Origin: Candidatus Bathyarchaeia archaeon
Lineage (GTDB): Archaea; Thermoproteota; Bathyarchaeia; Bathyarchaeales; Bathycorpusculaceae
Assembly: GCA_049515895.1 (NCBI GenBank)
Contig: JBEKTQ010000010.1
Coordinates: forward strand, 1 to 64,000
Direction: 5' to 3'
Length of the DNA: 64,000 bases
Shown: piece by piece, positions 240 to 48,238 of the stretch
Numbering within the stretch: position 1 is the first letter of the stretch
Layout of the letters: each line of letters opens with the position of its first letter
The notes under the pieces: model-generated
Told to the model about the DNA's origin: nothing
The model's input: the letters and a program-made list of their open reading frames with translations, nothing else
The model's database searches: none
Position numbers and translations under genes: made by a program

Positions 240-650
240 CTACAGGAAGTTGCGGAGGCACTCCAAGTAATCTAAGAAAGATAGCTCCTCTTTTTTCGGG
301 GAAACCCTGAAGCGAGGGACCTTGCGTTGGAGCGTCTTCATAATTCGTGCCTCAAGAATTAAGGCGCCTTGCCCAAAGATTTGTTCCAGCGCCTTCAGGA
401 AAGCCTCAACGTGGTTAGGTATTGCTTCTCTGCTAACGCCGAAGCTGTTTTTTAGGTGAAAATATATTGCTTGTTTAGTTGAGTCGCCAAGCATGGAGAA
501 AGTGGAGTCCACCGCTCCTAAGAACAGACTATCAAAGTAAGCCTCGGATAAGTCGGCTTTTTTGTTGTTAAGACGGATTATGCATGCTGGTTCAGGGTTG
601 ATTATGACTGCTGCATCTTGGTTTCTCTGTAGTTGTGTTGGACTGTTCAT
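240..650 (-). CDS. DUF3227/NitrOD5-like protein (ORF track starts at 719)
   Basis: AVDSTFSMLGDSTKQAIYFHL...IPNHVEAFLKALEQIFGQGALILE; paralogous to 16370-16798 and 17907-18266. Confidence 0.7.
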   Translation of the reverse strand: MNSPTQLQRNQDAAVIINPEPACIIRLNNKKADLSEAYFDSLFLGAVDSTFSMLGDSTKQAIYFHLKNSFGVSREAIPNHVEAFLKALEQIFGQGALILEARIMKTLQRKVPRFRVSPKKEELSFLDYLECLRNFL

Positions 651-809
651 ATGTTGTACTTCACTACACATAACTACTATCGTAAGTCTTAATATAACTG
701 TTATTATAGGATTCGACATATTCCTAAAATCGATATATGCCCAAAATTGTACCCAATTTGGCGAAATGAAGAGATATTGTTAAGTTGGGTTTTGGGGATT
801 AAATTTTAA

Positions 810-5253: not shown

Positions 5254-6360
5254 TCATGTGGTTTCGGTAGAAGCTTCTACTATCTTCTTAATCTCTGCGT
5301 TTAGAATGTCCGGCAGTCCAAGTATCCCTACATCCATGAAACCACGTATAATCACCGAAACGGCTTGATCGCGTGACAATTTTCGTGTCATGAGATAAGT
5401 AATTTCTTTTTCTGAGATTTTTCCCACCGCCGCCTCATGAGTTATCTCGACCCCTTTCCTTTTGGCGATGAGCTCGGGAATAGACTGCATAAACGATTCA
5501 TCATCCATCAGTAAGCCGCGGCATTCCAAGTGTCCCTTGCAGTCGTTGCTGTCCCCTTCTATCATGCCTCGGATGATCATTTTTGAGCCCTCACGAGAAA
5601 TGGCGCGGCTAATCATCTCTGCCTTGCTTCCTTTTCCAGTGAGAAAAGCTTTCGTTCCAATGTCCAGCTGCGAGTTTTTGTATCCGTACAATATGCTGTT
5701 GAAGCTCGCCCGTGAGTCCTCTCCTTTGCAGTACGCCACAGGATACATTTGAATGTCCCTGACGGGGCGCATGCACACGTAGTTCGACACGAATGTTGCC
5801 TTGTCAGCTATTTCGGTTGCGCTTCTCGGTCGGACAAGGGTGGTCTCGCTCCATTGATGAATCATCGTGAAGTTGAGCATAGCGCCTTTTTTGACGTAGA
5901 TTTCGGATATGCCCATGTGCGATGCATTTTTAACCGTTGAGTGTTGAAGGCAACTGGTTATTATGTGTGCGTTTGAGCCTTTCTCAGCAATTATGATGTT
6001 GTGCACTCGCTGTTCCAGATTCTTCTGCGAGATCATCATGCATGATTGAAGAGGAAAGGCCACTTCGGCGCCAGGAAGAATCCGCATAAAGTAACCTCCG
6101 CTGTAGTCTTCAGCTACTTTTTTAGTGTACTCGTCCTTGTTTTTGTCAACGATTTTCCACATATAATTGTCGAGCCAAGAGTACTTTTTCAGGGCTGTCT
6201 TGATATCCAACAGCTCGATTTTCCTTTCGAAAACTTGGTTGACCGTTGCTTGGACAGTTGTTTGATCCAAGTGGAAATATGTGCCTGAACGGTTTTTTTC
6301 GTTTGATTCAATGCCGGCCTTCTGTGCTTCTTCAAGAATCTTATGTGGTACTTTTTTCAA
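5254..6360 (-). CDS. sufB: Fe-S assembly scaffold SufB-like (SmsB type)
   Basis: GHLECRGL, THEAAVGKI, YLMTR, IIRGF. Confidence 0.9.
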   Translation of the reverse strand: MKKVPHKILEEAQKAGIESNEKNRSGTYFHLDQTTVQATVNQVFERKIELLDIKTALKKYSWLDNYMWKIVDKNKDEYTKKVAEDYSGGYFMRILPGAEVAFPLQSCMMISQKNLEQRVHNIIIAEKGSNAHIITSCLQHSTVKNASHMGISEIYVKKGAMLNFTMIHQWSETTLVRPRSATEIADKATFVSNYVCMRPVRDIQMYPVAYCKGEDSRASFNSILYGYKNSQLDIGTKAFLTGKGSKAEMISRAISREGSKMIIRGMIEGDSNDCKGHLECRGLLMDDESFMQSIPELIAKRKGVEITHEAAVGKISEKEITYLMTRKLSRDQAVSVIIRGFMDVGILGLPDILNAEIKKIVEASTETT

Positions 6361-9516: not shown

Positions 9517-9753
9517 ATGGATTTTGCTGAAGCTGTAGAGTTCTCGAAGAAATTTCGCACTTGCAATCCAAAGGTGTTCAAAGGTTTTATTGAGTGGGGT
9601 ATTTGTGATGCTGAAACGGATGGCTATGTAGTTCTTGCTGACGCCACTCTAGCTAGAAAGTCGTATTTTAGCGAATTAGAAGATTACGTTAAGAGTCATA
9701 AATTGAGAATAGATTTCGGTGAAGATTATTTGATGGTTTCTACGCTTTGTTAA
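9517..9753 (+). CDS. Small hypothetical protein
   Basis: 78-aa ORF preceded by a TATA-like AT-rich segment. Confidence 0.5.
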   Translation: MDFAEAVEFSKKFRTCNPKVFKGFIEWGICDAETDGYVVLADATLARKSYFSELEDYVKSHKLRIDFGEDYLMVSTLC

Positions 9754-10004
9754 GTTGTTGGGCGATAAATGGTTATTGAGTTAGCTATTTCTTTCATCAC
9801 TAATTTGTGTCTCTCAAGAACAGCACCAATGCATTTTCGTAAAAAGTCATCGAGCGAGCAATTTATTTTCAATTCAAAAGAAGAACCCTTTGCTTTAGCT
9901 GGGACTATGGGTGAAAGGGAAACACAGCTCATTAAAAGTGACCCATCGCATTCGCCTAAAATCTCACGTAGTACCTTAACTGCTTCCTGTCTCTCCATAG
10001 CCAT
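9750..10004 (-). CDS. Small hypothetical protein
   Basis: 84-aa ORF convergent with 9517-9753, with overlapping stops. Confidence 0.55.
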   Translation of the reverse strand: MAMERQEAVKVLREILGECDGSLLMSCVSLSPIVPAKAKGSSFELKINCSLDDFLRKCIGAVLERHKLVMKEIANSITIYRPTT

Positions 10005-10240: not shown

Positions 10241-12746
10241 TTGCATGAAAATACAAGAGGCAATTCCGTGAGCAACGAGTTCGCACCTTATACTCAAGAG
10301 AAATCCAAGTTGAGCAAGAATAAAAGATGCGACGAAATAGCAAGCCAAAAGTTTCTCCTTGAGCTTTACCAGAAAGCGTTGCTTTTGTCAGAAAAGGAAC
10401 TTGATGACTATTTCTTAGATCATGCAGTTAGTCTTACGGGAAGCACAATTGGTTTTTTCCATTTTATTTCGGAGGATCAAAAATCAATCATACTTACCGC
10501 ATGGAATGGTGAAACACTCAAGAACTGCAAAGCCAATTATAGCACCCATTACCCAATCGAGTCAGCTGGCAACTGGGTTGATTGCGTCCGCAGTGGTCGT
10601 CCAGTCATTTATAATGACTACGTGAAATCTCCAAATCAGAAGGGAATTCCGGATGGGCATGTTCAGCTTAAGAGATTTATGAGTATCCCGATGATTGAGA
10701 ATGGCAAGGCTCAGATAGTTTTTGGTGTAGGAAACAAAACTGATCCCTACACGGAAGACGACGCTGTTCAACTCCAACTCATAGCTAACGAACTATTGAA
10801 AATTTACAGGCAGCGTCGAGCAGAGAATACGCTTCGTGAATCTGAGAAAAAATACCGCTCTTTGTTTGAGAACATGTTAGAGGGATTTGCCTATTGCAGA
10901 ATGATCTTTGACGAACAAAACAACCCTATTGATTTTGTTTATCTTGAAATTAATGATACGTTTGAGCGGTTAACTGGTCTGAAAAGAGAAGCTGTTATTG
11001 GAAAAAAAGTTACGGAAGCGATACCTGGAACTGAAAAAGCAAACCCTGAGTTATTTGAAATCTATGGTAGAGTCTGAGTTATTTGAAATCTATGGTAGAG
11101 TCGCCTTAACCTGTAGGAACGAAAAGTTTGAAGTATTTTTCAAGCCTTTAATCCAGTGGTTTTCTATTTCAGTGTATTGCCCGCAGAAAGGGTATTTCGC
11201 TGCTGTTTTTGAAGACATTACTGAGCGCAAGAAAGCCGAAGAAGCACTTGCAGCCAGCAACGCCAAGATTACTGGTATTTTGGAGAGCAATAAAGATGGC
11301 TTTTTTGCTCTTGACCAAAATTGGAATATTGCGTATGTAAACAAGACTGCGGCAAAGATATGGAGGGTTAAACTCGAAAGGGTGGTTGGATTTAATTTTT
11401 GGGAGAGGTTCCCAAAATTGAAAGGATCGATTGTGGAGGAGAATCTCCGCAGTGCAATGGAGACCAGGAAATTAAATCGGTTTGAAGTTGGTGGCATCTA
11501 TACCCATGGTTACTATGAAGCTAAAGTGTTTCCTTCTCAAGAGGGAATCTCGGTTCTGTTGGGTGACATCACTGAGCGCAAGAAAAATGAAGATTTACTG
11601 CGTGAAAGCGAGGTCAAGTTCCGAACAGTTGCTGATTTCACATTTGATTGGGAGTACTGGATTGCACCAGATGGGCACATGATCTATGTTTCGCCTTCAA
11701 GCAAAGCGATCACAGGTTACGATGCTAGTGAGTTCATCAAAGACCCTAAACTTCTCACAAGAATCGTTCACCCTGATGATAAATTAATTGTTGGTCCACA
11801 TTTTGACTTGATTAGTTCAGACGAGCTGCATGATGTTGATTTTCGAATCCTGACGCAAGGCGGAGAGACACGTTGGATTTCGCATTCATGCAAAGCTGTT
11901 TTCGACGACAATGGCAAATGGATAGGTCGCCGCGCTAGCAACCGTGACATTACCGATCGCAAACAAATGGAAGTAAAGCTTGAGGAGTATAGCAAGCATT
12001 TGGAGGATTTGGTTGAAGAGCGAACCAAGCAGCTTAAGGATTCTGAGCGATTAGCTGCAATTGGCGCTACTGCTGGGATGGTTGGACATGATATTCGGAA
12101 TCCTTTGCAGGCAATAATTGGCGACGTGTATTTGGCTAAAACAGAGTTAGCCTCATTTCCTGAAAGCGCTGAGAAAAAGGGTGCATTGGAAAGCCTATTA
12201 GAAATTGAGAAGAACATTGATTACATTAACAAGATTGTTGCGGACTTGCAGGACTTTGCCAGACCGCTTAATCCACATGCAGAAGAAGCAGACCTAAAAC
12301 TCATAATTGATGAGCTATTGGGAAAGAACGGTTTGCCTGACAATGTTAAGGTAAGCATTAAGGTGGAGAGTGATGCTAAGAAAGTTGTGGCTGATGCATC
12401 TTACATAAATCGTATACTGTTCAATTTGGTTAATAATGCCGTTCAAGCAATGCCCAAAGGCGGAAAACTAGCCATACGTGCCTGCAAAGAAGCAAACGAC
12501 GTCGTCATAACCGTCAAGGACACTGGAGTAGGCATTTCTGAGGCTGTAAAAAGCAAACTGTTTACACCAATGTTTACAACTAAATCGAAAGGTCAGGGAT
12601 TTGGCTTGCCTGTGGTTAAGCGAATGACGGAAGCGTTAGGCGGAACAGTAAATTTTTCGAGCAAAGAGGGTAAAGGAACAACTTTCATAGTGCGTTTGCC
12701 CTCCTCAAAAGAGCTAAACGCTAAATGGGCCTTCAATGGAACTTAA
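10241..12746 (+). pseudogene. GAF-PAS-PAS-PAS histidine kinase split by a 28-bp tandem duplication
   Basis: ORF1 encodes GAF and the start of a PAS domain; ORF2 encodes the remaining PAS domains, GHDIRNPL and FTTKSKGQGFGL. ELFEIYGRV appears in both frames. Confidence 0.85.
11046..11101 (+). repeat. Perfect 28-bp tandem duplication
   Basis: ctgagttatttgaaatctatggtagagt at 11046-11073 and 11074-11101. Confidence 0.97.
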
Positions 12747-12979
12747 TTATTATTTTTCGGGTTCTGGGAACAGCATCCTTTATCGGCTTCAACAGCTCCA
12801 CACCTTCCATGTTGGGCAATCGAATATCTATGAGCGTTACATTGTAGGTCGTCTCTTTTTATTGCGTCCCTTTCGCTACCTGCCAAATCCACGATGTAAC
12901 CTTCATCCTCAAGACTTGATTTCATGGTGTTTCTGATGCTCTCGTCGTCGTCAACAAGAGTTCCGGCCTGTTTATCAAT
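12733..12979 (-). pseudogene. Response-regulator receiver remnant
   Basis: (ATT)DKQAGTLVDDDESIRNTMKSSLEDEGYIVDLA, then a frameshift to ETTYNVTLIDIRLPNMEGVELLKPIKDAVPRTRKIII; truncated. Confidence 0.8.
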
Positions 12980-15900
12980 GTTTTTTCACCATGAACCTCT
13001 ACTATGGGTTTAATAGGCAAAGTTATTGTGAACGTTGTTCCCCCGTTTACTACTGTTTTCACCGTTATTATGCCCCCATGCGACTCTATGAAGCGTTTGC
13101 AGATGGCTAAGCCGAAGCCCATGCCCTGTGCCTTAGTAGTGAACAGCGGCGAGAAGAGCTTTTGCAAGGTCTCTTTTGGTATACCCGTGCCCGTGTCGGC
13201 GAAAGAGATTTCCACGTTATCCCCTGTTTGGTAGCTTGTGATTTCGAGTGTTCCCTTCTCAGGTATGGCATCTATCGCATTCTTTATGAGATTTATGAAA
13301 ACTCGCATCATCTTGTCGGCGTCAACCCTAATCTGAGTTTCAGCGAGAACATGACTTACGATTTGTATTCTATCCGGAATCTGAATGATGCGTAATGCGT
13401 CTTCCAAAAGCGTGTGGAGCGCGTATTCCCTAAGTTCCAGGTGTATCTCTCTTGAGTATTCTAGTAGGTCGTTGATAATTTTGTTCGCGTGATCAATGGC
13501 TTTATCGATAGTTTCAAGCATTTCTTTACCTTGAGCTTCGGAAATTGTTGTATCTTTCCTTTTTAAGTAAAAGGCAGCGTTCTTGATGCCTTGTAGTGGA
13601 TTGCGGAGGTCATGACCAACCATGCCGGCTAGTTCGCCTATAGCAGCTAGTCTTTCTGCTTTTAGCAGGCGGTCTTGCATTGCCCTTAGCTCTGCGGTTC
13701 GTTGCGCCACAGTTTCTTCGAGTTCTCTGGAGTAGTTCTGCAGTTTCTTTTGAACTTGTTTTCTTTCGGTGATGTCTCTGACGAAGGCTACCCCATGGTT
13801 TTTCCCGTTGATTTGCATTTTGGAAAAGGACAGTTCAGCAAAAAATTCTGCTCCATCCTTTTTTAAGCCTATTATTTCGATGAGTCTTCCAATCGATTCT
13901 TGCGGGCTGGTTTCGACGAATCTTCTTATTTCTTGTGTTGCTGTTTGAGTGACGCTAAAAGGAATCAATTTGGAAATGGGTTTACCAATTATTTCTTCTT
14001 GAGTGTAGCCGAAGATTCGTGAGGCCGCTGGATTCCATTCTGCGACGTTCATTGCATCATCTATTGCGATGATCGCGTCTAATGCAGAGTTCAATATGGT
14101 GCGGAATCGTTCTTCGCTGCCTTTTAAAGATTGTTCCATCATTTTACGTTCGGTTATTGGCAACACGAGCTCTAATGCGGATGTTACGGTTCCGTCATTA
14201 TCCTTGATTGGCGTGGCGATAAGCTGCATCCAGACGGTGGAGCCTCTTTCTTTGTCGAAAACCATGTACTCGCGAGAGTCGAAATCTTTGCCCTCGAAAA
14301 CCTTTCTTACGCCGCAGTCGGGGCAAACGGTGTCTAAGTAGTTGTAGGTGGCGTAGCACTTTCTGCCTTCTAAGTCTTTCACGCCTCTGATCTGTTTCAT
14401 GACTTTGTTGGTCCAGAGAATGCGGTAGTCTTTGCTGGTTATAGTGAGTCCAACGCCTATGCTTTCTGTTATGGTTTCCAGTTTTTGGCTTTCTTGTTTA
14501 AGTTCATTCTCCGTTTTTTTGCGAAGAGTGATGTCTGAGACTAGGGCTAGAGTGCCGATGCGGTTTCCTTCGTCGTCCTTAATCTGTGAAGCAGCAATAC
14601 TCGTGTAAACCTTGGAACCGTCTTTGCGAGGGAATTCATATTCAAAGGTTCCTTCTGCGCCTCTCTTGAACTGTGCCAGGTACTGGATGGCTTGTTCGAC
14701 TTCAGCTTTGATTACAAAATCGCATAGATTTTTTCCGACCATTTCACTTTCAGCGTATCCCAGCATATTCGCCATTCGAGGATTAACAAAAACTGTGCAA
14801 TAGTTGCTATCAAATGCCCAAATGCCCTCTTGAGCAATGTTAACGAGTTGACGATACTGCATTTCACTTTTCATTAAGGCTTCTTGGACTCTTCGCGCCT
14901 CCGTGGTGTCTTCTAGTTCAGCCACGAAAAGGCTGGGTTTGCCATTTTGGTCTGTCACCGCATTAACCATGATTTTTCCGTTTATTACGGCGCCGTCTTT
15001 TTTGACATACCGTTTCTCAAGCGTAAATGAAGATATCTTGCCATTTTCCAGTTCACACATTTTTAATGCGCTTGCTTTGAGGTCTTCGGGATGGGTTATG
15101 TCTTTGAAGGTTAGCTTTTGTAATTCGTCTTCTGTATAGCCTAGTACTCTGCAGAAGGTTTCATTTGCGCTTAAGAAGTGTTTATCAGCTCCTGAGGTAG
15201 CAATCCCCATTGGAGAGTTGGCAACTATTGCTCTTGACCTTTTCTCGCTTTCCTTTAAGGCTTCCTCAGCTTTCTTGCCTTCAGTGATGTCTTGTATCAT
15301 TGAAAGAATGCCTATCACAGCGCCGTCTTTTTTCAGTGGCGTGTTTGACCACTCACAAAGGAGAGTTCGACCGTCCTTAGTAACGTTCTCGTTAATGCTA
15401 TTTGCCGTCAAGTCCCCCTCGAGTAGTCGTCTCCAAATTTTTTCCACGTTAGGCTTAGCTTGTTTGGGCACAATGAAGTCGTATGGATGTTTTCCAAATG
15501 CCTCTTGCTGTGTGAAGCCAAATATTCGCGCAGCCGAGGGATTCCATGTTTTAACGCGGAAGTCCATACCCCAAACGATAAGTCCAATAGGCATCCGATC
15601 AACTTCCAACTGCTGAAATTCTTGGAGCTCTTTAACTCGCGCCTCTGCTTTCTTGCGCTTAGTCACATCTCTTATTATCGTTTGATAACCAATGACTTTG
15701 CCGTTTTGCCAGATGGGGTTGCTATTGTACTCTGCATTTCTCTGCCCATTTGGTGTTAGTATTTCGATTTCGCCTTGAGCCGGTTTTCCGGCAGCGATGT
15801 TCTTAAATCCTGCGCGCATTTTTTGTTTCTCTTCTATTGGAACAAGCTTGAATATGCTATTTCCCACGATTTCATTTTCTTTAAAGCCATATTGCATTAT

Positions 15901-16398
15901 AGCCTTATTTGCTGAAGTTATTTTTCCCGTCAAATCGATGGTAACAACAACGGCTGGGGCGTTTTCGAAAAGATTCTTGTACTTCTCTTCGGAAAACTTA
16001 ATCTGTTCCTCGACTTTATTTTTTCGATCTGTGACGTCATGGAAGACGACAAGGCTAGCAGGATGCCCTGCATAGCGGACTGTTTTTCCTGTTACTTCAA
16101 CCAAACGGGTTTCGCCAGCTTTAGCAGTAAAACAAACCTCGTATGATTCAACAGCCGCTCCCTGCGTTCGATTTTTCAGATTTTCCAAGATAATTGCTTT
16201 GCTTTCTGGTGAAACAATGTTGAGTTCAAGTATGGAGGTTCCGACTAATTCTTTTCCGTTCAGCCCAATTTTTTCTTGGAATGCATTGTTTACTGTGAGG
16301 AAATTTCCTTTTTCATCAGCTATAGCTGCTGGGTCAGGCAACATGTCTAAAAGAATTCTGATAGTTGCTTTACTTCTGTAATTCTTCATATTGTTCAT
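12922..16398 (-). CDS. Cytoplasmic histidine kinase with about seven PAS domains
   Basis: Repeated PAS/PAC units ending in DIT/DVT-like motifs, GHDLRNPL, FTTKAQGMGFGL; no TM helices. Confidence 0.92.
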   Translation of the reverse strand: MNNMKNYRSKATIRILLDMLPDPAAIADEKGNFLTVNNAFQEKIGLNGKELVGTSILELNIVSPESKAIILENLKNRTQGAAVESYEVCFTAKAGETRLVEVTGKTVRYAGHPASLVVFHDVTDRKNKVEEQIKFSEEKYKNLFENAPAVVVTIDLTGKITSANKAIMQYGFKENEIVGNSIFKLVPIEEKQKMRAGFKNIAAGKPAQGEIEILTPNGQRNAEYNSNPIWQNGKVIGYQTIIRDVTKRKKAEARVKELQEFQQLEVDRMPIGLIVWGMDFRVKTWNPSAARIFGFTQQEAFGKHPYDFIVPKQAKPNVEKIWRRLLEGDLTANSINENVTKDGRTLLCEWSNTPLKKDGAVIGILSMIQDITEGKKAEEALKESEKRSRAIVANSPMGIATSGADKHFLSANETFCRVLGYTEDELQKLTFKDITHPEDLKASALKMCELENGKISSFTLEKRYVKKDGAVINGKIMVNAVTDQNGKPSLFVAELEDTTEARRVQEALMKSEMQYRQLVNIAQEGIWAFDSNYCTVFVNPRMANMLGYAESEMVGKNLCDFVIKAEVEQAIQYLAQFKRGAEGTFEYEFPRKDGSKVYTSIAASQIKDDEGNRIGTLALVSDITLRKKTENELKQESQKLETITESIGVGLTITSKDYRILWTNKVMKQIRGVKDLEGRKCYATYNYLDTVCPDCGVRKVFEGKDFDSREYMVFDKERGSTVWMQLIATPIKDNDGTVTSALELVLPITERKMMEQSLKGSEERFRTILNSALDAIIAIDDAMNVAEWNPAASRIFGYTQEEIIGKPISKLIPFSVTQTATQEIRRFVETSPQESIGRLIEIIGLKKDGAEFFAELSFSKMQINGKNHGVAFVRDITERKQVQKKLQNYSRELEETVAQRTAELRAMQDRLLKAERLAAIGELAGMVGHDLRNPLQGIKNAAFYLKRKDTTISEAQGKEMLETIDKAIDHANKIINDLLEYSREIHLELREYALHTLLEDALRIIQIPDRIQIVSHVLAETQIRVDADKMMRVFINLIKNAIDAIPEKGTLEITSYQTGDNVEISFADTGTGIPKETLQKLFSPLFTTKAQGMGFGLAICKRFIESHGGIITVKTVVNGGTTFTITLPIKPIVEVHGEKTLINRPELLLTTTRASETP

Positions 16399-16798
16399 TC
16401 ACTAAAACTCCAATTTCCACTTTATCGTCTTTTTCAGCTTCAAAACTCTCTCGCATCAGGCGGACGTACTCTGGAAATGTCATTTCTGGAACAATCCACT
16501 TTGACAAGGGCCCTTCATATGTTGGCCAATTAAAAGTTACTTCAAATTTGGCATAAAGTTTTTTCAAAAACAATATTTCTAAATGTCGGGCACCTAATCC
16601 GAAAATTTGCCCAAGTGCATTCGAAAAATCACTTAGTTTACGGGGTATTTCCTCTTTCTTAATCTTAAAGAGGTCTTCGAGGTGTGCATAAATTGAAGCC
16701 GTCGCGTTTTCGCCTATGATTAATAATGCTTCGTCCATGGCTTCCAGTACAACTTGATCAAAAGTCTTAGGCCGATCCGGGTTATTTAACTCATTCAT
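16370..16798 (-). CDS. DUF3227/NitrOD5-like protein
   Basis: LEAMDEALLIIGENATASIYAHL...FSNALGQIFGLGARHLE; ATG at 16798 overlaps the upstream stop region. Confidence 0.75.
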   Translation of the reverse strand: MNELNNPDRPKTFDQVVLEAMDEALLIIGENATASIYAHLEDLFKIKKEEIPRKLSDFSNALGQIFGLGARHLEILFLKKLYAKFEVTFNWPTYEGPLSKWIVPEMTFPEYVRLMRESFEAEKDDKVEIGVLVNEQYEELQK

Positions 16799-17426
16799 CT
16801 TCGCTTTTGCAACCGCCCATAACGAGTTTGCACTGCGGACGCACACTATGGTAACAATGCCGACGAAACTCTTGGTCCGCAAGTTTCGCTATTATGTCTT
16901 TAAACAAGTCTGGAAAATCTTTTAGCCATTGCTTGTAAGATGATCTTATCGAGACATCCGTTATTTGAAGAACGATTGCTATTTCCCTTTGTTTCTTGGG
17001 ATCATCATACCTAAAGCCCAGAAGATAGAATAATCCCCCCACTATGCATCTAAAGCTTTTTCCGTTGCCAAACGCGAATTTTTTCTTGCAAACTTTGTTT
17101 ATGATTTCGACGGTATCCATGTTTATTTTTCTCGCGGTTTTCTTGTTTTGCCAAAGCAAGTTAGCTGCAACCGTGATTTCTTGAACTTTTTGAAGCCCCT
17201 GATTTATGCGATCTATGTCGGGAAGTCGACAACCTTTCAAAGCCGAATCAAATAGGGCATCGTCTGTTCGCTTTGCAGTCTCGCCTGGGATAGCCGCAAG
17301 ATTGGCGAAATATCTATTCTTCGTTAGGACAGCGTCTAATGTTGCTCCAATGTTTACGTCCTCTCCCAGAGTTATTCTGGCTTGTTTATCCATTTTTTCC
17401 ATTGCTTGCGTCATTTTCTTGCTCAA
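16791..17426 (-). CDS. Degenerate receiver fragment fused to a single TFB-like cyclin/HTH repeat
   Basis: C-terminal GKS...FYL...KKQREIA...QITDVSIRSSYK aligns with the TFB in this window; the N-terminus aligns with receiver beta1-beta3. Confidence 0.7.
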   Translation of the reverse strand: MSKKMTQAMEKMDKQARITLGEDVNIGATLDAVLTKNRYFANLAAIPGETAKRTDDALFDSALKGCRLPDIDRINQGLQKVQEITVAANLLWQNKKTARKINMDTVEIINKVCKKKFAFGNGKSFRCIVGGLFYLLGFRYDDPKKQREIAIVLQITDVSIRSSYKQWLKDFPDLFKDIIAKLADQEFRRHCYHSVRPQCKLVMGGCKSEDE

Positions 17427-17448: not shown

Positions 17449-17916
17449 TTAGTTATCTGTTAATAGTTTTTTTGTTCTGTTTCGGAGAAATACGGAAATA
17501 CTGTCTTCTGTAGCTGTTTCAGCAGCCTTCTGTTCTTCAATTTTGCTTTTTATTGTCTCCAGAAGCTTTTCTACATCGACTGGCTTAGTTAGGTAGGCTA
17601 CTGCCCCATCATTCAAAGAATCAACTGCATTTTTTAACATCGGATATCCAGTGAGCATAATCTTCACTGTCTTTGGCGAAGTCTCCCGTAGCGCCTTTAG
17701 AAGGCTGGTACCTTCCCCATCTGGAAGCTTTATGTCCAGAATCGCTAAATTGTAGTCGTTTTCGTAGGACTTGTCTATTGCCTCTTTCACAGTGTGAGCG
17801 ACATCTGTTTGGTACCCTTCGGATTCCAACAGGATACGTAGAGATCCGGTGATCCCTTTGTCATCATCTACAACCAGGATTCGCAATTTTTCTTGCACCA
17901 TAACCTTCACCTCCAA
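17449..17916 (-). CDS. Stand-alone response regulator receiver
   Basis: ILVVDDD, ILDIKLPD, MLTG, LTKP and a short helical tail. Confidence 0.92.
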   Translation of the reverse strand: MEVKVMVQEKLRILVVDDDKGITGSLRILLESEGYQTDVAHTVKEAIDKSYENDYNLAILDIKLPDGEGTSLLKALRETSPKTVKIMLTGYPMLKNAVDSLNDGAVAYLTKPVDVEKLLETIKSKIEEQKAAETATEDSISVFLRNRTKKLLTDN

Positions 17917-18266
17917 CCATCTCCGTTCTTGTATCGGTCACGTAATTTTCTAACTTGATTTGGAAAATTGATCGGTTTTTCACATTCAAAGTTGATTCCC
18001 AGCTTTTTACAAAAGATTTCAAGTATTGTTTCCTCAAGTATCGCTGCTGCCCCAAGAATCTGTCTGCGCCCAAAACCCATTATGCTTTCAAGTTCCTCCG
18101 AGAAAATTTCAGGTTTGTTTGGAATTTCGCTGCTCAGGAAGTTCTTTTTCTCAAGATAATTCCAAATAATAGTCGCGTTTATGTCGCCCAAACAGTATTT
18201 AATCGTTTCTTCGGTAACCTGAACCAAGAGTTTATCGAAGTCTTTAACTGTCTGGATTAGCTCCAT
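17907..18266 (-). CDS. DUF3227/NitrOD5-like protein
   Basis: ETIKYCLGDINATIIWNYLE...EIPNKPEIFSEELESIMG...GAAAILE. Confidence 0.7.
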   Translation of the reverse strand: MELIQTVKDFDKLLVQVTEETIKYCLGDINATIIWNYLEKKNFLSSEIPNKPEIFSEELESIMGFGRRQILGAAAILEETILEIFCKKLGINFECEKPINFPNQVRKLRDRYKNGDGWR

Positions 18267-18783
18267 GAACGTGCACCGATTTATGCGTTAACTGTCAGCG
18301 GTCCTCTTTGGGCTAAAACCTTCAGAATATCAACGTATATTTCTATTTTGGAACGCCTCATACTTGACCCGTTTTATAGGAAGACTGGATTCCGTATTAA
18401 CAATGTGTGCGTAGTAACTAGTATGCGTAACTTGTTTTGAATACAAAACTTGTAGCTACTACATTAGGTGTTGCCAACAGTAATTACGTACCTTCTTTTC
18501 CAATTATCCATCCATACAATTTCAATTTCACCACCGTTCTTAATGGTAAATTGGTGTTCGAACTCTCTAAGCACCATTTTTTCAGAATCTCAACTATAGG
18601 CAAAGCTGAGCAGGAAACTTGGGAAATTAATTGGATTTGAACCAGCCGCGGTTTGGGTCTCTATGGGAGTTGAACCCATTTGAGTTCAAACCGTATTATG
18701 GTCCCTGGGATCTAGCGAGCCTTTAAGCGCCTTTGTTACAGAACTCGAAGGGATTCGTTTAATGTATTAAGCGAATCCGATAA

Positions 18784-18808
18784 CGGGTCCGGTGGGACTC
18801 GAACCCCA
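18784..18808 (-). mobile_element. tRNA 3'-end fragment (att-like scar)
   Basis: Minus strand TGGGGTTCGAGTCCCACCGGACCCG is a T-loop plus acceptor strand with no 5' half. Confidence 0.6.
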
Positions 18809-18889
18809 GGGTGCGAATATGTACTTTCCACCTTTTTTTAGGACTATGTTTTCTTGCCTAGAAAACTATTATTGATTTGACTCGCCAAG

Positions 18890-47272: not shown

Positions 47273-48238
47273 ATGATTGAAGATAGCAAGATACATGAAG
47301 AACCCGACCTATCTGCAAAAACAGAACCCCCCAAGATACAATCATGCCCTGAATGCGGCAGCACCCGACTTATGCGCGATTACGAATGCGCTGAAATAGT
47401 ATGCATGGACTGCGGCATCGTGGTGCAGCAGAAAATAGCTGACCGTGGACCTGAATGGAGGGCGTTCGACGATGAGCAGAGGTCGAAAAGAACCAGGGTT
47501 GGAGCCCCCTTAACCTACACAATCCATGATAAAGGTCTATCAACAACCATCGATTGGCACGATCGCGACATCTACGGCAAAAGCCTCTCGCCAGGGCAGA
47601 AAGCTCAGGTTTACCGTCTTAGAAAATGGCAAAGACGCATCAGAGTTTCAGATGCGACAGAACGAAACTTGGCGTTTGCACTCTCCGAAATAACAAAGAT
47701 TTCCAACAACTTGAATCTACCAAAAAACATTCTTGAAACAGCCTCAGTAATCTACCGAAAAGCAGTAAAAGAACGTCTGATCCGAGGCAGGTCAATTCAG
47801 GGTGTTACTTCAGCAGCACTTTACTTAGCATGCAGGCAATGCGCTTTACCGCGCACCTTAGATGAAATCGCTCAAGCGTCAAGTGTAAACAAGAAAGAAG
47901 TTGGGAGAAGCTACCGTTTTCTGATAAGAGAACTAAACTATTCGATCCCACCGCTGAGGCCAAGTCAGTATATAACAAAGTTTTCGAACCAATTAACTAT
48001 GCAGGGGAAAGTTGAAGAAATCGCCCACAAAATCCTCGCAGCAGCGAAAGAACTAAAGCTTACATCAGGCAGAGGACCAACAGGAATAGCAGCGGCAGCG
48101 AGTTACGTGGCGTCGGTCTTGACGGGTGAACGAAAAACTCAGAGAGAAATCGCTGAAATTGCGCAGGTAACTGAGGTCACCATTAGGAACAGGTATAAAG
48201 AACTCGTTGAACGGTTGATGTTCCAGATAAGCATTTGA
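47273..48238 (+). CDS. tfb: Transcription initiation factor B
   Basis: CPECG...CMDCG zinc ribbon, GPEWRAF and two cyclin repeats. Confidence 0.98.

Follow-up and report, generated by a model that had tools for sequence, protein, structure and literature searches.

By what route the many stand-alone receivers of archaea act on the machinery of transcription is a question still to be answered. In the passages of Galperin et al. 2018 (PMC5847659) that deal with them, archaeal receivers are described as mostly stand-alone and thought to signal by protein contacts, DNA-binding outputs being rare. Here we analyse a window of 64,000 nucleotides (nt), by which we mean the whole stretch of DNA studied (contig JBEKTQ010000010.1 of assembly GCA_049515895.1, from a Bathyarchaeia archaeon, positions 1-64,000, forward strand), and in it a gene that provides a candidate for the missing link: a chimera of half a receiver and a single cyclin repeat of the type found in the transcription factor TFB. 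Homologs can be traced for both halves, the gene lies in a histidine kinase and receiver operon that is conserved in other genomes, and relatives of the protein are fused to further domains, one of them a complete receiver. We regard it as reasonably probable that the chimera is a Bathyarchaeia-specific transcription regulator, the TFB-repeat output of its two-component system, and that its N-terminal extension is a relic.

A preliminary description of this DNA had reported the open reading frame (ORF) of the chimera and quoted peptides from it; both are present on the minus strand as reported. The frame of 211 amino acids (aa) opens at a TTG, and further in-frame ATGs are its codons 5, 9 and 12. 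Its parts are the following:

16791..17426, minus strand: chimera gene, a half receiver followed by a single TFB-type cyclin repeat (ORF, 211 aa)
17217..17393, minus strand: N-terminal extension, residues ~12-70, corresponding to receiver beta1-alpha1-beta2-alpha2-beta3 up to the LPD loop, with Gly66 at the phospho-acceptor position (hidden Markov model (HMM), hhalign and alignment)
16851..17216, minus strand: cyclin-fold domain, residues ~71-192, with a leading helix, a five-helix repeat and a family-specific C-terminal helix (W-L-x-x-F-P-D-L-F)
16917..16997, minus strand: helix-turn-helix (HTH), residues ~144-170, KKQREIAIVLQITDVSIRSSYKQWLKD, which aligns to the HTH of TFB that reads the TFB recognition element (BRE)

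A lone TFB-type cyclin repeat in the C-terminal half

The C-terminal domain of the chimera is a cyclin fold. An AlphaFold2 (AF2) model computed from a 35-member alignment has six helices over residues 71-192, with a predicted local distance difference test score (pLDDT) mostly above 90. Its best chains in Foldseek are 1ais_B and 1d3u_B (probability 1.00), and VIA-align superposes it on residues 1205-1300 of 1d3u_B with Z 12.0 and a root-mean-square deviation of 2.2 over 96 residues. The first repeat of human TFIIB (Z 11.7-11.8) and cyclins of cyclin-dependent kinases (CDK; Z ~10.9) are the runners-up.

It is mainly the sequence that identifies the repeat as the second one of TFB. The NCBIfam TFB model NF001658 matches the chimera at model positions 234-303 of 312, i.e. 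in the second repeat (E 1.6e-5). Searched against the PDB, the 35-member family profile finds TFBc of P. woesei (1d3u_B/1ais_B), again in the second repeat (chain residues 121-191, E 1.7e-8). The window's own TFB, encoded at 47273-48238, is identical to the chimera at 13 of 26 positions across the HTH (BLASTP, E 1e-5).

In the HTH, the recognition helix T-D-V-S-I-R-S-S-Y-K is close to that of TFB and follows the family pattern T-D/E-V-S/T-I/V-R-x-x-Y-K. In family alignment A1 (35 sequences, the chimera being the reference row), residues Q146, R161 and Y164 of the HTH are invariant; so are W92, F119, G122, GLFY(131-134), W167, F171-P172 and F175, all of them kept by the chimera. The family has surface motifs of its own that TFB does not have, namely W92, GGLFYLLGF and W-L-x-x-F-P-D-L-F, together with an extra C-terminal helix. 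HTH models of sigma-70 region 4 are weakly matched by some members.

The rest of TFB is not found in the chimera. NF001658 covers positions 234-303 only, and the N-terminus is receiver-like and free of CxxC pairs, leaving neither a Zn ribbon nor a B-reader or B-linker. A second cyclin repeat is likewise missing: Pfam and the PDB profile each give a single matched stretch, and the model contains a single helical domain. The proposal of a lone second TFB repeat with an intact HTH, devoid of Zn ribbon and B-reader, is supported, and the fold that it presupposed is predicted.

The chimera shares with archaeal TFB and eukaryotic TFIIB the fold and the HTH pattern, its best match being the second repeat of P. 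woesei TFBc; unlike them, it has a single repeat where they have two, is devoid of Zn ribbon, B-reader and B-linker, and has its own C-terminal helix and invariant residues. The same genome retains three ordinary two-repeat TFBs. A reading of the chimera as a decaying gene is rejected, as the ratio of nonsynonymous to synonymous substitution rates (dN/dS) in the cyclin domain is 0.21-0.57 (a rough Nei-Gojobori estimate from four genomes).

The nearest described thing is arCOG05559, presented in passages of Makarova et al. 2016 (PMC4858521) as a TFIIB variant of Pyrobaculum and Thermoproteus that combines a Zn finger with one lone cyclin domain and is found in type IV pilus-like loci. Going by that description, it resembles the chimera in being a TFB paralog cut to one cyclin domain and placed in a specialised operon; the same description sets it apart by its Zn finger and pilus-like loci, whereas the chimera has no Zn finger and stands among two-component genes.

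A receiver-derived N-terminal half

The Pfam model Response_reg gives no match to the chimera at E ≤ 1, and a search of the chimera against its own genome returns weak matches of residues 11-105 to three ORFs, all of them stand-alone receivers. As judged from profile comparisons, residues 12-70 are descended from a receiver. An extension HMM of 69 positions, made from 18 relatives with the window's row left out, picks 7 receiver ORFs out of the genome's 15,219 ORFs, with E values between 2.7e-11 and 8.8e-5, and each match spans beta1 to the LPD loop; six of these receivers are intact and the seventh is a frameshifted remnant at 12733-12985. A control HMM made from the reversed rows yields zero matches at E ≤ 10. 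With hhalign, the extension and receiver profiles align at 96.9% (E 2e-10, 61 columns, 36% identity), and BLASTP finds 23 of 62 residues identical between the extension and one receiver (E 6e-8). In the reverse test, an HMM of the six own receivers matches the extensions of 26 family proteins, always at positions ~3-75 of 133.

The alignment of extension and receiver is nearly gapless through beta1-alpha1-beta2-alpha2-beta3 to LPD, where the leading helix of the cyclin domain starts. The receivers nearest to the extension are of the kinase-adjacent type, to which the remnant at 12733-12985 also belongs; between the extension and the adjacent operon receiver (17449-17916), BLAST gives no alignment.

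A receiver origin from beta1 to beta3 is what the preliminary description had proposed, and the profiles bear it out. It had gone on to call the N-terminus a pseudo-receiver domain, and here it went too far: only the first half is present (positions ~3-75 of 133), at low pLDDT and with a dN/dS of 0.46-1.08. The chimera contains no complete (beta-alpha)5 receiver, the portion with the Thr/Ser and Lys being absent after beta3.

The acidic pair of the chimera is E-D following a Gly, and the acceptor position is occupied by Gly66. A replacement of the acceptor Asp by Gly, as had been noted, holds for the window's protein, but not for its relatives: of 28 rows, 9 have D at this position and 11 have E, G and N are found in 3 rows each and V and A in 1 each, and Gly is limited to the window's protein and two near-identical fragments (3/28).

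A conserved operon and its domain fusions

The neighbours of the chimera are these:

17907..18266, minus strand: helical protein of 119 aa, a paralog of the 142-aa NitrOD5-like protein; first gene of the operon, with a 10-nt overlap with the receiver gene
17449..17916, minus strand: complete stand-alone receiver of 155 aa, matched by Pfam Response_reg over profile positions 1-111 of 111 (E 2.2e-24)
16791..16798, minus strand: gene junction ATGAATGA, where the stop of the chimera overlaps the ATG of the 142-aa gene
16370..16798, minus strand: NitrOD5-like helical protein, 142 aa, downstream of the chimera; a fusion partner of the cyclin domain in relatives
12922..16398, minus strand: 1158-aa cytoplasmic histidine kinase in which Pfam finds seven PAS stretches, a HisKA and a HATPase_c domain
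12733..12985, minus strand: receiver pseudogene behind the kinase, with no start codon and one frameshift, ending after beta4

On the minus strand the operon thus reads 119-aa protein, receiver, chimera, 142-aa protein and PAS histidine kinase. The chimera ORF opens 23 nt past the receiver stop, an arrangement repeated in three loci of other genomes (L013-L015). All three of these long-form loci have a small protein, a receiver, the chimera and a PAS kinase adjoining. The junction ATGAATGA is crossed without insertion or deletion (indel) by contigs of runs X1 and X2, possibly the source samples; contigs of the independent runs X3 and X4 do not span it. The sequence of the extension is identical in contigs of X3 and X4.

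In L013, whose chimera is 65% identical to that of the window, the downstream small protein is fused in frame to the chimera, and two receiver fragments follow the kinase as they do in the window. A single base separates the two arrangements: at the junction the window, where the genes are split, has one base more than L013, where they are fused.

We surveyed 262 family proteins for fusions. A NitrOD5-like domain is fused to the cyclin domain in 12 (C-terminally in 9, N-terminally in 3), and the half receiver is present in 26. In addition, a NitrOD5-like gene adjoins or is fused to the family gene in L017, L024, L025 and L030 and lies nearby in L032. Protein P0363 (258 aa) consists of a cyclin domain and then a complete receiver: its Response_reg match is above the cut-off (E 9.6e-18), its TFIIB repeat match has E 1.1e-3, and its cluster is present on 3+1 contigs. 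The relative in L032, 80% identical to P0363, has no receiver. Given the half-receiver clade on the one hand and the full receiver of P0363 on the other, the family has met receiver sequence twice, independently. Like response regulators that have DNA-binding outputs, P0363 has a true receiver, here joined to a TFB-like domain, and the chimera holds receiver-derived sequence.

The association with two-component genes that the preliminary description had suggested is therefore seen in the operon of 3/3 long-form loci, in the NitrOD5-like fusions and in P0363 with its complete receiver. Its remnant near 12979 is real as well: a receiver in two frames, lacking a start codon and cut after beta4.

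In another relative, P0130, the domain in front of the cyclin domain resembles the window's 84-aa ORF at 9750-10004 on the minus strand (26% identity, E 3e-9). That ORF is divergent from a GAF-PAS kinase gene.

Family, distribution and origin of the extension

A word-indexed search returns 114 relatives and an exhaustive search 154 cluster representatives at E ≤ 1e-3. Most are short forms of ~125-150 aa made of the cyclin domain alone. When longer relatives (371-2000 aa) were sought, none of 1332 candidates scored, which is only a weak indication. In a tree of 193 near-complete domains, rooted on the repeat of the window's TFB, 23 of the 25 rows with a full extension fall in one clade of 30 (support 88), the remaining members of which are N-terminally incomplete calls. 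Outside the clade there are P0036 and the doubtful P0093. This distribution points to a single origin of the extension, by one fusion in one subclade.

The preliminary description had left room for an accidental fusion unique to this genome; such an accident is rejected on the conserved clade and the conserved operon.

A species-level genome collection contains 19 family loci, 18 of them labelled Bathyarchaeota or Bathyarchaeia. One locus (L026) is on a 2.8 kb contig labelled Cytophagales bacterium, and its neighbours, an AsnC-type HTH gene and a REC-TrmB gene, are as in Bathyarchaeia loci; the bacterial label is probably a binning error.

The extension is very probably translated and probably a relic

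The extension belongs to the protein: the extension HMM spans 29 family proteins end to end, the 28 aligned rows are almost free of indels, the ORF opens 23 nt past the receiver stop, and its sequence is the same in independent contigs. Between codon 12 and the cyclin domain the sole in-frame start is TTG63, located just before LPD.

In the AF2 model the extension has a pLDDT of 46-59 and is modelled as disordered, save for a helix over residues 24-44, at the location of alpha1. Its core strands bear polar residues in the alignment. In the same four-sequence Nei-Gojobori comparison, the dN/dS of the extension is 0.46-1.08, against 0.21-0.57 for the cyclin domain; the closest pair gives 1.08 and the other five pairs 0.46-0.84.

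As half of the fold is missing, pLDDT is 46-59, dN/dS reaches 1.08 and the acceptor is D in 9 of 28 rows only, the extension, which stems from a receiver's front half, is probably a relic. Its low pLDDT and its dN/dS of 0.46-1.08 make a regulatory role doubtful. Known pseudo-receivers keep the whole receiver fold, whereas the chimera keeps beta1-beta3 only, with Gly as acceptor. The half receiver is a clear example of a gene fusion that keeps a mere fragment of a domain.

Small NitrOD5-like proteins

The neighbours of the chimera had been labelled DUF3227, a family now named NitrOD5 (PF11537). This label does not hold at the level of an HMM match: a genome scan with PF11537 finds neither of the small operon proteins, and both have zero Pfam families at E ≤ 1. 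What remains is structural likeness, on which alone the name NitrOD5-like is used here. The small-protein model is helical (pLDDT 79, predicted template modelling score 0.70), and in the ESM Atlas a NitrOD5 cluster (row 4) resembles the small protein with template modelling (TM) scores of 0.66/0.79. Among PDB structures the uncharacterised PH0832 (2p9x; probability 1.00, TM 0.79-0.84 by target) comes closest, followed by a pyrin domain (probability 0.44).

According to passages of Galperin et al. 2018 (PMC5847659), NitrOD5 either stands by itself or is part of REC-NitrOD5 and belongs to an archaeal family termed 'Death domain-like'. As there described, its members are small helical proteins, of which a genome holds many copies, either single or joined to REC. 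The operon neighbours resemble them in predicted structure (TM 0.66/0.79), but they are unmatched by the PF11537 HMM and have relatives fused to a TFB-type domain, an architecture absent from the passages of the Galperin table that we compared.

The genome encodes 11 NitrOD5-like paralogs, and 100 unnamed relatives were found. A third paralog is at the start of the window (243-779, minus strand). On contig C1 (35627-36586) a paralog lies within an open frame of 320 aa and is followed by an extra C-terminal region.

A putative TFB-derived output and its rivals

The review PMC7289017 describes the second cyclin fold as the reader of BRE and the Zn ribbon as the part that recruits RNA polymerase. 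We infer DNA binding, its target, the sign of regulation and the signal route of the chimera as follows. The working part would be the one TFB-derived second cyclin repeat, with its HTH predicted to sit on BRE-like DNA near a TATA box. Lacking the Zn ribbon and the B-reader, the chimera could occupy DNA but not start transcription. The signal would pass from the PAS kinase to the stand-alone receiver, from there by protein contacts to the NitrOD5-like small proteins, and finally to the cyclin/HTH protein; the company that the gene keeps in the genome suggests that kinase and receiver control it by contacts between proteins, the small ones serving as adaptors. The extension, captured by one fusion in one subclade and no longer phosphorylatable, would probably be a flexible tail only.

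In its most general form the proposal is tentative, something we consider possible rather than probable: a TFB-derived cyclin/HTH domain would be an unrecognised two-component output, on which phosphorylated receivers act via death-fold-like adaptors, and the protein a polymerase-blind TFB decoy that competes with the general factor on BRE-like DNA. The family would be a transcription-factor paralog in use as a signalling output. Word searches of a library of open-access papers returned no description of this family, nor any of a TFB-type domain that acts as a two-component output or occurs in Bathyarchaeia. The finding gives a concrete, testable chain, with a TFB-derived domain in kinase/receiver operons that is elsewhere fused to a complete receiver or to adaptor-like domains. 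If BRE-like DNA is indeed bound, it would mean regulation by a decoy of a basal factor, signalling controlling promoters through competition with TFB.

Several observations weigh against the reading of the chimera as the TFB-repeat output of a two-component system with a relic extension. The Pfam TFIIB repeat PF00382 matches residues 96-168 at E 4e-4 with 20.8 bits, below its cut-off of 23.6. Short forms have another setting: in 14 of 16 loci (L016-L031) they face a convergent gene for an AsnC-type HTH protein (~170 aa) rather than lying in kinase operons. This gene is followed by TrmB-PAS in 7 loci and REC-TrmB in 2 (9/16 in total). With the short forms mostly outside kinase operons, the link of the family may be to sensor-regulators generally. 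Of the 11 NitrOD5-like paralogs of the genome, only 4 have a receiver or kinase, as detected with narrow HMMs, at a distance of 2.5 kb or less. The family is rare, occurring in 4 of 301 sampled genomes of the class and in its long form in the window's genome only; as the first filter scored at most 10 candidates per genome, misses are possible. The tree was computed with FastTree only, and the dN/dS values are rough ones from 4 sequences. Finally, 20 of 28 extensions have an acidic residue at the acceptor position and most rows retain LPD, which may reflect a residual constraint on some extensions and makes a docking role conceivable.

On these last points an alternative can be built, a fuller version of the preliminary reading, in which the extension still functions as a pseudo-receiver: as a module for docking or regulation it would contact the kinase or the neighbouring receiver (e.g. 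via alpha1) and switch a TFB mimic at BRE/TBP. The preliminary description had the second repeat contact TBP as well; within TFB the main TBP contact comes from the first repeat. Besides D or E in 20/28 rows and the LPD, the kept frame and length of the 28 nearly indel-free rows speak in favour of this alternative, as do the helix modelled over residues 24-44 at alpha1 and the closer kinship of the extension to kinase-adjacent receivers than to the operon's own receiver. We nevertheless think it unlikely: the extension lacks half of the (beta-alpha)5 fold and with it the positions of Thr/Ser and Lys, the core strands carry polar residues at a pLDDT below 60, and dN/dS is as high as 1.08 in the closest pair. 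The frame would be kept even in a functionless extension, because the start codon is upstream of a domain that is needed.

Another alternative concerns the cyclin domain, which might be a protein-binding scaffold for TBP, RNA polymerase, the kinase or NitrOD5-like proteins, its HTH likeness inherited and unused. CDK cyclins match the model almost as well as TFB does (Z 10.9 vs 12.0), the invariant surface motifs W92, GGLFYLLGF and W-L-x-x-F-P-D-L-F are the family's own, and many fusions are to small domains of the protein-interaction type. However, nowhere is the match to TFB better conserved than in the recognition helix, where R161 and Y164 are invariant, and the weak sigma-70 region 4 matches of some members also point to an HTH; a pure scaffold is thus quite improbable in our estimate.

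It is very improbable that the extension stands outside the protein, with translation from TTG63 giving a product like the short forms, which begin at the equivalent place, and the upstream 180 nt being a dead receiver fragment left open by chance: the dN/dS near 1 of one pair would fit, but the other five pairs are at 0.46-0.84, the HMM covers 29 proteins end to end, 28 rows are nearly free of indels, and the ORF opens just 23 nt past the receiver stop, as it does in L013-L015.

Upstream region and other features of the window

Upstream of the operon we note one further feature:

18340..18429, minus strand: candidate promoter/operator of ~90 nt, in which TACGCAYAC stands twice as a direct repeat, 16 nt apart, followed by TATAAAA; conserved in L014 and L015

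Between the window, L014 and L015 this segment is about as well conserved as coding sequence, and the window carries ~36 extra nt ahead of the operon start codon compared with these loci. The pair of TACGCAYAC repeats is unique in the genome. No sign of a wider TACGCAYAC regulon was found, the genome containing 25 such sites where ~46 are expected from base composition. In the 620-nt spacer upstream of the operon there are also three T-arm-like stretches (GGTTCRAnTCC; window ~18640-18830, minus strand), for which ARAGORN finds no transfer RNA and Rfam no match at E ≤ 1.

The receiver pseudogene at 12733-12985 (minus strand) is identical in contigs of the independent run X3. In L013 the receiver behind the kinase (5550-5847) is likewise split into two ORF pieces; the split receivers of the window and L013 may represent a shared old lesion or a recoding site.

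On the plus strand, a GAF-PAS ORF (10241-11077) and a PAS-HisKA-HATPase ORF (10998-12746) overlap by 80 nt in different frames, and both contain ELFEIYGRV. The pair has the look of a single sensor kinase gene that a small duplication or a frameshift has disrupted.

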